Shown here: positions 16,114 through 28,332 of the stretch, in pieces
Layout: each line of letters begins with the position of its first letter
How positions within the stretch are numbered: position 1 is the first letter of the stretch
Virus record (IMG/VR): IMGVR_UViG_2558860290_000008
Span: 1-36,050 of that record
Length of the DNA stretch: 36,050 nt
Strand: one strand, 5' to 3'
Source of the DNA: a virus
Taxonomy: Duplodnaviria > Heunggongvirae > Uroviricota > Caudoviricetes
Made by a program: the position numbers and the translations under genes
Notes under the pieces: model-generated
Told to the model about the DNA's origin: nothing
Database searches by the model: none
What the model saw: only the letters and a program-made list of their open reading frames with translations

Positions 16114-16656
16114 TTAATTGGTGAGTCCGGGTATTACGGTTTGCCCGTGCTGTTCAAGGCGTTCAATTCTAGCCAGCAGCTGTGGCTTCTTAATTTTTCC
16201 CCAGCGATTAAGCAAGCGGCCTGACATGCTGGCAACATCCTTCTCTTTCATGTACTCCAGCATTACGGCATTTCTCTCTTCTTCAAATTGACGATGACCA
16301 ACCTGAAGCATGGCGTACATCCAGTTGAATGCGTTGATGTAAGCAATTTTGATACGCATTGCTTCTTTTTTGGTGTAGGACATAACCAAAAGCATCAACC
16401 CATCCTTACGTAGCCGATAGAATTTTTGTGGCTTACCATTCTGTAACTCATTGTTTTTATAGCAAACCTCAAAATTGAGTTTTGTATCAAACTCTTCAGG
16501 ACAAGCAGCGATAGTTCTTTCTACATCACGCACAACGTTGTCATGTCGCTTACGAAATGCTTTCGCCACCATAAATGAATCGGTGACAGGGTCATTGTTG
16601 GTAATAAAAACCAGTTCTTTGAAATCAATGCCGTCAACGATAGTTGGATAATTCAT
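16114..16656 (-). CDS. rha: Rha-family phage regulatory protein
   Basis: N-terminal motifs (VTDSFMVAKAFRKRHDNVVRD ... KIAYINAFN) resemble the Rha family; located between the lysis and terminase genes as in P22-like phages. Confidence 0.6.
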   Translation of the reverse strand: MNYPTIVDGIDFKELVFITNNDPVTDSFMVAKAFRKRHDNVVRDVERTIAACPEEFDTKLNFEVCYKNNELQNGKPQKFYRLRKDGLMLLVMSYTKKEAMRIKIAYINAFNWMYAMLQVGHRQFEEERNAVMLEYMKEKDVASMSGRLLNRWGKIKKPQLLARIERLEQHGQTVIPGLTN

Positions 16657-17364: not shown

Positions 17365-17791
17365 TCAGACTATCGATCTTGTGTTCATACTGACCGTAGC
17401 CAGCACCGGGCAATGAAGCCCAAATATTGCTGCAACGATCGATAGCCTGACGGATATCACCGCGATCAATCATCGGTAAAGCGCCACGTTCTTTAATCTG
17501 TTGCAGTGCCACAGCGTCCTGGCTTTTCGGAGAGAAGTCTTTCAGGCCAAGCTGCTTACGATAGGCATCCCACCAACGGGAAAGAAGCTGGTAGCGTCCG
17601 GCGGCTGTTGATTTGAGTTTGGGGTTTAGCGTGACAAGTTTGCGAGGGTGATCTGAGTAATCAGTGAATAGCTCTCCGCCTACAATGACGTCATAACCAT
17701 GATTTCTGGTTTTCTGACGTCCGTTATCAGTCCCCTCTGACCACGCCAGCATATCGAGGAACGCCTTACGTTGATTATTGATTTCCACCAT
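17315..17791 (-). CDS. R: Endolysin, lambda R-type lytic transglycosylase
   Basis: 158-aa protein beginning [39 protein letters not shown], which matches my recollection of lambda R almost exactly; C-terminus diverges. Confidence 0.9.
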
Positions 17792-18098
17792 CTTCTACTC
17801 CGGCTTTTTTAGCAGCGAAGCGTTTGATAAGCGAACCAATCGAGTCAGTACCGATGTAGCCGATGAACACGCTCGTTATATAAGCGAGATTGCTACTTAG
17901 TCCGGCGAAGTCGAGAAGGTCACGAATGAACCAGGCGATAATGGCGCACATCGTTGCGTCGATTACTGTTTTTGTAAACGCACCGCCATTATATCTGCCG
18001 CGAAGGTACGCCATTGCAAACGCAAGGATTGCCCCGATGCCTTGTTCCTTTGCCGCGAGAATGGCGGCTAACAGGTCATGTTTTTCTGGCATCTTCAT
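17775..18098 (-). CDS. S: Holin/antiholin, lambda S-type with dual start
   Basis: 107-aa protein beginning [39 protein letters not shown], with the Met1-Lys2-Met3 dual-start motif; matches my recollection of lambda S. Confidence 0.9.
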
Positions 18099-18339
18099 GT
18101 CTTACCCCCAATAAGGGGATTTGCTCTATTTAATTAGGAATATGGTCGGTTACTGATAGAACAAATCCAGGCTACTGTGTTTAGTAATCAGATTTGTTCG
18201 TGACCGATATGCACGGGCAAAACGGCAGGAGGTTGTTAGCGCGACCTCCTGCCACCCGCTTTCACGAGGTCATGTGTAGAAGGCCGCAGCGTAACTATCA
18301 CTGATGAATTCAGGATAGCCAGTGGCTACGGCTCAGTTA

Positions 18340-18415
18340 TGGTGCTGGTTAACGGACTTGAACCGCTACCCATTCGCTTACAAGGCGACCGCTCTACCAT
18401 TGGAGCTAAACCAGC
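18340..18415 (-). tRNA. tRNA-Thr (anticodon UGU), 76 nt
   Basis: Hand-folded cloverleaf: 7-bp acceptor stem (GCUGGUU/AACCAGC), D arm GCUC/GAGC with a GG loop, anticodon loop CUUGUAA, T arm with TTCAAGT loop, discriminator A and encoded CCA. Confidence 0.7.
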
Positions 18416-18420
18416 ATATT

Positions 18421-18495
18421 TGGCGGGACAGCGTGGACTCGAACCACGATAAGAAGGTTAACAGCCTTCCGTAATGACCTTTATACGACTGACCC
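18421..18495 (-). tRNA. tRNA-Asn-like (anticodon GUU), 75 nt, with one acceptor-stem mismatch
   Basis: Hand-folded: anticodon stem GAAGG/CCUUC, loop CUGUUAA, T arm CGUGG-TTCGAGT-CCACG, encoded CCA. Acceptor stem has a U-U mismatch at 4:68 and the D stem is only 3 bp. Confidence 0.5.
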
Positions 18496-18496
18496 A

Positions 18497-18540
18497 AATA
18501 AAAAAGCCACCGTTGCAACTTAAGAGTCACTAACGGCAGC
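18497..18540 (-). terminator. Intrinsic terminator immediately downstream of the putative late promoter (tR'-like)
   Basis: Minus-strand GCUGCCGUU ... AACGGUGGC 9-bp stem followed by UUUUUUAUU, ending 1 nt before the first tRNA. Confidence 0.65.
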
Positions 18541-18550
18541 TTACCTTCTA

Positions 18551-18580
18551 ATTATGGCTAAATGGATAATTGCATGTCAA
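18551..18580 (-). promoter_or_regulatory. Putative late promoter (pR'-like) and likely site of Q action
   Basis: Minus-strand TTGACA, 18-nt spacer, CATAAT; overlaps the Q stop codon, with the terminator hairpin starting within a few nucleotides of the predicted start site. Confidence 0.55.
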
Positions 18581-19076
18581 GGCTTTTAACAGCAACATGC
18601 TTAACTTTCTCAACACGTTTACGCATTTTGAAAGCATTTTGCATTGGCTGATATAAAACAAATAATGACGCTTTCAGGATGTCGTCAATTTCGTTTCTAC
18701 AGGTTGCCAGTGAAGGTTTTCTCCATCCCTCGCCACCACGTCCACACATCTTGCGTGGCTTTGCAGTCGCGTGATAGTAGGATGCAATTGCTCGCTTAGA
18801 TGAACCATGAGCGTAGTAGCTGAGGAGGATGCCAAAGGCTTTCTTGTCAATGTACATGACGGAATCGACGACCTGAGAAATCAACATTCCATCATCATCA
18901 TTGCACATTGGCCTTGTCATAACTCTTCCCGGCTCTACGCTCTCCATGAACTTCGCTATTACGCTGCTCATGCGCTTTTCCAGGCGGCCTGAGTAAACCC
19001 ATGCACCCCACAGTTCAAGCCAGCCATTCAGCCAATCGTGCTGTTCTTTGGTGAGGTTTAGTTCTCTTATGCTCAT
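18558..19076 (-). CDS. Q: Late-gene antiterminator Q (phage 21 / 933W-type family)
   Basis: 172-aa protein with WLELWGAWVYSG ... RPMCNDDDGMLISQVVDSVMYIDKKAFGILLSYYAHG, resembling the WGAW ... CCDDD pattern I recall for 21/933W-type Q. Located between the nin genes and the late promoter. Confidence 0.7.
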   Translation of the reverse strand: MSIRELNLTKEQHDWLNGWLELWGAWVYSGRLEKRMSSVIAKFMESVEPGRVMTRPMCNDDDGMLISQVVDSVMYIDKKAFGILLSYYAHGSSKRAIASYYHATAKPRKMCGRGGEGWRKPSLATCRNEIDDILKASLFVLYQPMQNAFKMRKRVEKVKHVAVKSLDMQLSI

Positions 19077-25382: not shown

Positions 25383-26099
<717 letters not shown>

Positions 26100-26211
26100 T
26101 CGGCAAGGTGTTCTGGTCGGCGCATAGCTGATAACAATTGAGCAAGAATCTTCATCGAATTAGGGGAATTTTCACTCCCCTCAGAACATAACATAGTAAA
26201 TGGATTGAATT

Positions 26212-27051
26212 ATGAAGAATGGTTTTTATGCGACTTACCGCAGCAAAAATAAAGGGAAAGATAAGCGCTCAATAAACCTGTCTGTTTTCCTTAATTCTCT
26301 GCTGGCTGATAATCATCACCTGCAGGTTGGCTCCAATTATTTGTATATTCATAAAATCGATGGAAAAACTTTTCTCTTTACCAAAACAAATGACAAGAGT
26401 CTGGTTCAGAAGATAAATCGCTCTAAAGCTTCAGTTGAAGATATTAAGAACAGCCTCGCGGATGACGAATCATTGGGATTCCCATCTTTTTTGTTTGTTG
26501 AAGGCGACACCATTGGTTTTGCCAGAACTGTTTTCGGGCCGACCACATCCGATCTGACAGATTTTTTAATCGGGAAAGGAATGTCATTAAGCAGTGGAGA
26601 GCGCGTTCAGATAGAGCCACTGATGAGGGGAACCACCAAAGACGATGTTATGCATATGCATTTCATCGGCCGAACAACGGTGAAGGTAGAAGCCAAGCTA
26701 CCTGTATTTGGCGATATATTAAAGGTCTTAGGGGCAACAGATATTGAAGGGGAGCTTTTTGACTCATTGGATATAGTCATTAAGCCAAAATTTAAAAGGG
26801 ATATAAAAAAGGTTGCCAAGGATATTATTTTTAACCCGTCACCTCAATTTTCAGACATTAGCCTGCGGGCAAAAGATGAGGCCGGAGATATTTTAACAGA
26901 ACATTATCTATCAGAAAAAGGCCATCTCTCAGCGCCTCTGAACAAGGTCACCAATGCTGAGATAGCTGAAGAGATGGCATATTGCTACGCAAGAATGAAA
27001 AGTGATATACTGGAATGTTTTAAAAGGCAGGTGGGCAAAGTTAAGGATTAA
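26212..27051 (+). CDS. rexA: RexA (Rex exclusion system)
   Basis: 279-aa protein MKNGFYATYRSKNKGKDKRSINLSVFLNSLLADNHHLQVGSNYLYIHKIDGK, matching my recollection of lambda RexA; AT-rich. Confidence 0.9.
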   Translation: MKNGFYATYRSKNKGKDKRSINLSVFLNSLLADNHHLQVGSNYLYIHKIDGKTFLFTKTNDKSLVQKINRSKASVEDIKNSLADDESLGFPSFLFVEGDTIGFARTVFGPTTSDLTDFLIGKGMSLSSGERVQIEPLMRGTTKDDVMHMHFIGRTTVKVEAKLPVFGDILKVLGATDIEGELFDSLDIVIKPKFKRDIKKVAKDIIFNPSPQFSDISLRAKDEAGDILTEHYLSEKGHLSAPLNKVTNAEIAEEMAYCYARMKSDILECFKRQVGKVKD

Positions 27052-27066
27052 TTATCAGGAGTAATT

Positions 27067-27501
27067 ATGCGGAACAGAATCATGCCTGGTGTTTACATAG
27101 TAATAATTCCTTACGTTATCGTAAGCATTTGCTATCTCCTTTTCCGCCACTACATTCCTGGTGTTTCTTTTTCAGCTCATAGAGATGGTCTTGGGGCGAC
27201 ATTGTCATCATATGCAGGAACCATGATTGCAATCCTGATTGCTGCCTTGACGTTTCTAATCGGAAGCAGAACGCGCCGACTGGCCAAGATTAGAGAGTAT
27301 GGGTATATGACATCGGTAGTTATTGTCTATGCCCTTAGTTTTGTTGAGCTTGGAGCTTTGTTTTTCTGCGGGTTATTGCTTCTTTCCAGCATAAGCGGCT
27401 ACATGATACCCACTATCGCCATCGGCATTGCCTCTGCATCGTTCATTCATATATGCATCCTTGTTTTCCAACTATATAATTTGACCAGAGAACAAGAATA
27501 A
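27067..27501 (+). CDS. rexB: RexB (membrane component of Rex exclusion)
   Basis: 144-aa polytopic membrane protein MRNRIMPGVYIVIIPYVIVSICYLLF, matching my recollection of lambda RexB. Confidence 0.9.
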   Translation: MRNRIMPGVYIVIIPYVIVSICYLLFRHYIPGVSFSAHRDGLGATLSSYAGTMIAILIAALTFLIGSRTRRLAKIREYGYMTSVVIVYALSFVELGALFFCGLLLLSSISGYMIPTIAIGIASASFIHICILVFQLYNLTREQE

Positions 27502-28005: not shown

Positions 28006-28332
28006 ATGGATGCACAAACACGCCGCCGCGAACGTCGCGCAGAGAAACAGGCTCAATGGAAAGCAGCAAATCCCCTGTTGGTTGGGGTAAGCGCAAAACC
28101 AGTTAACCGCCCTATTCTCTCGCTGAATCGCAAACCGAAATCACGAGTAGAAAGCGCACTGAATCCGATAGACCTTACAGTGCTGGCTGAATACCACGAA
28201 CAGATTGAAAGCAACCTGCAACGTATTGAGCGCAAGAATCAGCGCACATGGTACAGCAAGCCACGCAGTGAAATGGGTGTGACTTGTGTTGGTCGCCAGA
28301 AAATGAAATTAGGCAGCAAACCACTTATTTGA
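28006..28332 (+). CDS. N: Antitermination protein N
   Basis: MDAQTRRRERRAEKQAQWKAANPLLVGVSAKPVNRPILSLNRKPKSRVESALNPIDLTVLAEYHEQIESNLQRIERKNQRTWYSKP, matching lambda N with a divergent C-terminus. Confidence 0.95.
   Translation: MDAQTRRRERRAEKQAQWKAANPLLVGVSAKPVNRPILSLNRKPKSRVESALNPIDLTVLAEYHEQIESNLQRIERKNQRTWYSKPRSEMGVTCVGRQKMKLGSKPLI

Follow-up and report, generated by a model that had tools for sequence, protein, structure and literature searches.

What lies between the antiterminator gene Q and the first late gene of this prophage, and why should two tRNA genes be placed there? The window, that is, the whole stretch of DNA that was analyzed (36,050 nucleotides of IMG/VR virus record IMGVR_UViG_2558860290_000008), carries every feature of the late-switch module on its minus strand. 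In the direction of transcription the order is Q, a promoter, a hairpin with a U-run, tRNA-Asn(GUU), tRNA-Thr(UGU), a leader of the lambda type, and the holin gene S. This feature is very probably the late-gene switch of a lambdoid prophage of the Q21 family. The arrangement has already been described and is common in phages of E. coli, Shigella and Salmonella; it is no new variant because the phage 21 region carries exactly this Asn/Thr pair. In 1991 Guo, Kainz and Roberts reportedly characterized the late region of phage 21, and the arrangement has since been described in Sf6, SfI, ST64T, L and BTP1 too. The elements of the module are as follows.

18558 to 19076, minus strand: Q antiterminator gene, 172 aa (Pfam PF06530 Phage_antitermQ, E 1.3e-25)
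18575 to 18580, minus strand: pR' -35 hexamer TTGACA (aligned with the annotated -35 of phage 21 pR')
18556 to 18571, minus strand: putative Q-binding element (QBE), two direct 8-bp repeats (same alignment columns as phage 21 QBEu/QBEd)
18551 to 18556, minus strand: pR' -10 hexamer CATAAT (same columns as the annotated phage 21 -10)
18544, minus strand: predicted late transcription start, +1 (column homologous to the annotated phage 21 start)
18538 to 18543, minus strand: sigma-dependent pause element (SDPE) TAAGCT, +2 to +7 (identical to the annotated phage 21 SDPE)
18496 to 18542, minus strand: intrinsic terminator tR', a bulged 17-bp hairpin followed by UUUUUUAUUU (folding and phage 21 homology)
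18421 to 18495, minus strand: tRNA-Asn(GUU) (ARAGORN; Rfam RF00005, 55.3 bits, E 1.1e-10)
18340 to 18415, minus strand: tRNA-Thr(UGU) (ARAGORN; Rfam RF00005, 61.2 bits, E 2.6e-12)
18099 to 18339, minus strand: distal late leader of the lambda type, about 245 nt (95% mean column identity in a three-way alignment with lambda and Sf6)
17775 to 18098, minus strand: holin S, lambda type, first late gene (Pfam PF05106, E 2.4e-30)

Anatomy and operation of the late-gene switch

The phage 21 elements used for reference are those annotated in its complete record, OL657228, which marks the -35 hexamer, QBEu and QBEd, the -10 hexamer, the start site, the SDPE, the terminator, tRNA-Asn and tRNA-Thr. In a five-way alignment, the -35, QBE repeats, -10, start, SDPE, terminator and tRNAs of the window align with phage 21 column for column. 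The order and spacing of the elements are the same, and the two sequences are near-identical from TAAGCT to the last base of tRNA-Thr, terminator included. The alignments establish the anatomy, homology and conservation of the module.

Over residues 1-162 the Q protein matches the Q21 chains 6jnx and 6p18 in the PDB (E 2e-91); the structures of Q21 date from 2019 (Yin et al. 2019). Residues 1-102 are about 97% identical to Q21, whereas residues 103-162, the C-terminal DNA-contacting part, have diverged, and the C-terminus is 10 residues longer than that of Q21. The Q of phage L likewise differs from Q21 mainly in the C-terminal part that contacts DNA (Zaworski et al., PMC8022706). By these sequence comparisons Q belongs to the Q21 family and is assigned to the Sf6/phage L specificity subtype rather than to Q21 itself.

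The preliminary description had placed a consensus-like promoter (TTGACA, 18 nt, CATAAT) over the Q stop codon. That placement holds: the hexamers and their 18-nt spacer give 11 of 12 sigma-70 matches in a promoter scan and are homologous to the annotated phage 21 promoter, pR'21, and the Q stop codon, TAG (18560-18558), falls inside the spacer. In phage 21 the corresponding -10 is AACACT and the spacer is 17 nt. The site is the sole match of at least 11/12 within the 36-kb window. The hexamers by themselves are nevertheless weak evidence, because about 0.66 such matches are expected per window by chance (about 0.004 in the gap of roughly 460 nt between Q and S on that strand), and the promoter call is made on position and homology, not on the hexamers.

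Two direct repeats, AATTATCC (18571-18564) and ATTTAGCC (18563-18556), occupy the promoter spacer and contain the Q stop codon. Their phage 21 counterparts, QBEu and QBEd, are ATTGAGCA and AATGAGCA, while the QBE predicted for phage L (PMC8022706) has the same repeat string as the window. The repeats are thus the putative binding site of this Q subtype, as their sequence and position suggest. This specificity subtype has already been published. Among viral contigs with the tRNA-Asn, QBE type and Q C-terminus co-occur in 42/42 and 35/35 cases, the former count being that of the QBE type of this window together with its Q C-terminus. This pairing, which had been proposed for phage L, is consistent with co-adaptation; it is no proof of it, because the two elements are tightly linked and linkage alone could explain the pattern.

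Late transcription would start near 18544, 7 nt past the -10, if the phage 21 start is taken as the guide, or about 3 nt further downstream, near 18541, by the reasoning applied to phage L (PMC8022706). The motif TAAGCT that follows is invariant in all five aligned phages, and the SDPE of phage 21 is annotated as TAAGCTG. At six IMG/VR loci, which retain a terminator of the phage 21 type, the pR'/QBE sequence upstream of TAAGCT has been replaced. There, an ORF of 170 aa stops 54 nt short of tRNA-Asn, and by eye its C-terminus resembles AP2/HNH. The replaced late promoter of these loci may reflect an insertion of the homing-endonuclease type.

A strong terminator had also been described directly behind the promoter, and the folding bears this out. 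The hairpin (18542-18504, with UUUUUUAUUU continuing to 18496) has a predicted energy of -20.2 kcal/mol and z = -4.4, a value equalled by 0 of 200 shuffles. It begins 2 nt after the predicted start and 8 nt after the -10 hexamer, so the earlier distance of "about 5 nt" was slightly short. The sequence is identical to the phage 21 terminator, annotated in OL657228 with reference to PMID 1704887, except for one T in the run. A simple terminator scan of the window did not call this hairpin, because its stem is bulged and long. Folding and homology together settle tR' as the terminator, in so far as sequence can. The 5' arm of the hairpin includes the pause element, and the U-run abuts position +1 of tRNA-Asn.

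One could suppose that the promoter- and terminator-like sites are chance matches and that late transcription begins elsewhere. A match of at least 11/12 would be expected in a 36-kb window about half the time, and the terminator scanner passed over the hairpin, both of which would fit such a reading. The site, however, lies exactly at the Q stop codon and is homologous to the mapped pR', SDPE and tR' of phage 21, and the hairpin is far more stable than its shuffled counterparts; a coincidence of this kind is extremely improbable.

Given a functional switch of the Q21 type, its operation can be modeled on the solved system, in which the SDPE makes polymerase pause, two QBE-bound Q protomers load onto the paused enzyme, and the Q21 torus or "nozzle" placed on the RNA-exit channel blocks hairpin formation, leading to terminator read-through (Yin et al.). 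In the window, host RNA polymerase without Q would start at pR' (about 18544), pause at the -10-like TAAGCT (+2 to +7) and stop at the hairpin and U-run (approximately +3 to +49), giving a leader of about 45 nt. Once Q has accumulated, two protomers would bind the 8-bp spacer repeats and load onto the paused polymerase, and the nozzle on the RNA-exit channel would prevent the hairpin as in Q21. Since the pause element is part of the 5' arm, Q would have to load before the 3' arm is made. The Q-loaded polymerase would then pass the terminator and transcribe both tRNA genes, the leader of the lambda type, and the genes for lysis and the virion. In this sense it is from phage 21 that pausing, loading of Q and read-through are inferred.

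In a lysogen, by the same analogy, constitutive activity of pR' should yield an RNA of about 45 nt made of the hairpin and its U-tail (18544-18496). An Rfam search returned no family for this short leader RNA. The equivalent terminated transcript of Stx phages is an Hfq-binding regulatory sRNA, StxS.

Downstream of the tRNA genes, the preliminary description had recognized a lambda-like S upstream region, and late-leader sequence of lambda does extend from tRNA-Thr up to S. The leader contains a second strong hairpin, GGCAGGAGGTCGCGCTAACAACCTCCTGCC (18253-18224, minus strand; -20.4 kcal/mol), with GUUUUG to 18218, between tRNA-Thr and S. Its sequence equals that of lambda 45031-45060, downstream of the lambda 6S terminator (approximately 44771-44781), and it may be one of the tandem late terminators of lambda; in Sf6 the stem has two substitutions and the U-tract is weaker. 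A decayed tRNA-Thr remnant in the lambda late leader was also considered, an idea prompted by lambda AACAGCACAACCCAAACTGAGCC where the window has AACCAGCACCATAACTGAGCC. It was rejected, as a sensitive blastn search found nothing beyond the junction (best E 3.7).

The two tRNA genes

Exactly two tRNA genes are called by ARAGORN in the window, and both also score well above the Rfam RF00005 gathering threshold of 29 bits. The two genes proposed between Q and the holin, Thr-UGU and an Asn-GUU-like one, are therefore recognized as tRNAs by both tools. Each encodes its CCA end. The tRNA-Thr has G1-C72, C2-G71, G35 and U36. Asparaginyl-tRNA synthetase recognizes the anticodon and G73, and the tRNA-Asn has anticodon GUU and G73 with intact anticodon and T-loops; both sets of features we take to fit the identity rules.

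The tRNA-Thr differs from its phage 21 counterpart at a single position (G26 in the window, A26 in phage 21), and the 5-nt spacer between the two genes is essentially identical to that of phage 21. Among its copies tRNA-Thr varies more than tRNA-Asn does, and its stem changes preserve pairing. Five pairs are changed on both sides, a number that none of 500 shuffles attains (their value is 0.6) and that compares with 0-1 in slid controls; examples are G5-C68 to U5-A68 in five contigs and A49-U65 to G-C in one. The tRNA-Asn is too invariant for a test of compensatory change: of 126 copies, taken from the window, five reference phages and 120 IMG/VR contigs, 112 are identical, and the sequence is 100% identical in phage 21, SfI, Sf6 and JLK-2012 despite their differing flanks.

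The acceptor-stem U-U mismatch that had been pointed out in the Asn-like tRNA is real. It is U4·U69 in the Rfam alignment, and a second mismatch, U13·U22, is present in the D stem. These mismatches could mark tRNA-Asn as a decayed or non-decoding element, for instance an RNase P processing signal or one that defines the 5' end of the late mRNA, and the absence of an Asn codon bias from the late genes here, together with the lack of any reported for SfI, would agree with that. Against this reading, the sequence is essentially frozen while its flanks differ among phages; the score is 55 bits against a threshold of 29; anticodon loop, G73, T-loop and CCA are intact; and U4·U69 itself is kept in 123 of the 126 copies, with two of the three variants restoring a wobble pair (two G·U or U·G, one U·C). 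Loss of decoding function is accordingly very unlikely. The mismatch gives no sign of decay, and the suggestion that the Asn-like tRNA may be non-functional is not supported by sequence, because the mismatch is conserved and the gene passes both ARAGORN and Rfam.

A promoter scan between the terminator and the tRNA genes found no promoter-like site, so that the tRNAs would be made only by read-through or by leakage of the terminator. Since the scan detected no promoter of their own and the U-run directly adjoins tRNA-Asn +1, they are likely to be excised from the late transcript. RNase P and 3' processing would release them to serve as working tRNAs in lytic growth; processing from the late transcript and charging are, judged from their sequences, the most likely fate. 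Literature searches yielded no data on the expression or charging of these prophage tRNAs.

Relatives of the module and mobility of the tRNA cassette

A 521-bp query over the region matches 180 phage records, among them Shigella phage Sf6 at 97.5%, and the module matches 841 of 5,426 complete E. coli genomes, with query coverage of at least 80% in 182. PGAP annotates both tRNAs in E. coli genomes that have the module.

Sf6 (97.5-99% DNA identity with the window) shares the Q subtype, QBE type, terminator and tRNA-Asn. In its annotation (Casjens 2004), gene 59 (Q-like) is followed by a late promoter "nearly identical to phage 21", qut and tR', and then by tRNA-Asn and tRNA-Thr, "similar to phage 21". 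Phages L, BTP1 and ST64T share with the window the same four elements (Zaworski 2020), although in L and ST64T the second tRNA is reported with anticodon UAA, whereas that of the window is Thr(UGU). In phage 21 itself, the pinholin gene S21 follows the tRNAs where the window has the lambda leader and lambda S.

The resemblance to Stx phages noted at first is a fair analogy, with differing tRNA identities and no toxin genes as originally stated, but the real counterpart is the late regulatory region of phage 21. Like the window, phages of the 933W type have tRNA genes between the late terminator and the first late genes, and their short terminated pR' transcript is constitutive in lysogens, as proposed here. 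They have a different Q family, a 258-nt leader and a separate tRNA promoter (PMC7547250), and they carry stx, whereas in the window holin S lies directly downstream. Comparison with their ileZ/argN/argO cluster gave no correspondence, the Ile/Arg/Arg identities being replaced by Asn(GUU) and Thr(UGU).

The remainder of the window places the switch in unusual company. Upstream of Q, a Pfam search identified NinH, YbcO and Dam genes, and in the ORFs downstream holin S is followed by R and Rz. A gene for a Rha-family regulator with an ORF11CD3 domain (16114-16656, minus strand) is located inside the late operon, with the lysis cassette on one side and the small terminase gene on the other. The virion module is nearest to those of contractile-tailed lambdoid phages such as vB_EcoM-606R2 and SEN34, and Erf recombinase and integrase genes are also present. 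A lambda-like immunity region at 25386-27501 and 28006-28332 (both plus strand) contains cI (S24 peptidase and HTH), the abortive-infection pair RexA and RexB, and the N antiterminator. The window is a mosaic lambdoid prophage, since it joins lambda-type immunity genes and a contractile-tail virion module to the context of a Q21-family switch. This mosaic is unusually broad; Sf6, L, BTP1 and ST64T, in contrast, are P22-like podoviruses.

The Asn/Thr cassette of about 156 bp behaves like a mosaic unit of its own, occurring behind at least four different Q/terminator modules: the phage 21 type, the L/Sf6 type, a third QBE variant, and a Q of the lambda type with the tR' of lambda itself. On the left the cassette invariably joins at the terminator U-run TTTTTTATTT (window 18496-18508; loci L006-L125), and on the right it joins at ACCATAACTGAGCC (window 18335-18345), at the start of lambda homology near lambda 44,940. 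HK75 and HK629 have the same Q/pR'/tR' without tRNAs.

The second tRNA of the cassette takes several forms in other phages. In ST64T (L126) and two to three IMG/VR loci it keeps the 5' acceptor strand of the Thr type (GCTGGTT) and has a different body. The anticodon reported for the second tRNA of phages L and ST64T is UAA (Leu) (phage L: PMC8022706), which together with a short variable loop is odd for an enterobacterial Leu tRNA. In JLK-2012 (L004, 2160-2313) and eight to nine IMG/VR loci the second tRNA looks recombinant, the 5' third of the phage 21 tRNA-Thr being joined to a different 3' two-thirds; it is uncalled by ARAGORN in 8 of 9 copies, and an extra tRNA-Gly(tcc) follows.

Codon supply and counter-defence as reasons for the tRNA pair

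The simplest rationale for the pair, supplementation of the codons used by late genes, is weakened by the codon counts. An enrichment of ACA and AAC/AAU in the late genes had been put forward as a check. Of the Thr codons, 17% are ACA in late genes (10.5 per thousand) and 34% in early genes; for AAC the shares are 57% (late) and 53% (early), so that neither is enriched in the late genes. Use of ACA exceeds the host figure given in the SfI paper by a modest margin only; that paper describes an ACA bias and no Asn bias, and the phage L paper notes AAC use in the capsid gene. Codon supply to the late genes is a weak explanation here because those genes are unenriched in ACA or AAC.

A different rationale is suggested by the PARIS defense system, whose AriB cleaves the host tRNAs Lys(UUU), Thr(UGU) and Asn(GUU) between positions 40 and 41, the Lys tRNA being the primary target; cleavage needs U36-A-A-U39-C40 and is abolished by a change of U39 to A, and T5 variants of tRNA-Lys, tRNA-Thr and tRNA-Asn rescue infection (Burman 2024; Belukhina 2025). 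The tRNAs of the window read U36AAC39C40U41 (Asn) and U36AAG39C40G41 (Thr). Their anticodons match two of the AriB targets, UGU and GUU being shared with two of the three rescuing tRNAs of T5, and U39 is replaced by C or G. Like the T5 tRNAs they are substituted at AriB-motif positions 39 and 41, although no sequence relationship to the T5 tRNAs was detected and the phage is temperate.

The pair might thus be mainly counter-defense cargo. The requirement of AriB for U39, the rescue by T5 variants of the same tRNAs, the lack of U39 in both window tRNAs, the weakness of the codon-supply explanation, and the movement of the cassette as a unit behind at least four Q/terminator modules, which is accessory-gene behavior, all point that way. 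The match is weakly discriminating, however, since by chance U39 would be missing from about three quarters of anticodon stems; a tRNA-Lys(UUU), the primary target, is absent; and the PARIS papers make no mention of lambdoid-phage tRNAs (Burman 2024; Belukhina 2025). On balance this role is unlikely. The more specific proposal, that the Asn/Thr cassette behind lambdoid late terminators is a Q-timed counter-defense against Toprim anticodon-stem tRNases and not an aid to codon usage, is to be regarded as more doubtful still. If it were true, cleavage-resistant copies of two non-lysine targets of PARIS AriB or its relatives would be supplied during late protein synthesis.

The main use of these results is in annotating the window, which offers a clean example of a textbook regulatory module. 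For the Sf6/L subtype of Q21 it provides a further genomic context, that of lambda immunity combined with a myovirus virion. The DNA-contact region of Q and the 8-bp repeats, having changed together, form a natural specificity-swap pair for the solved Q21 system. Codon usage here leaves the tRNA pair unaccounted for, and its coincidence with the targets of PARIS AriB is an alternative that is directly testable.
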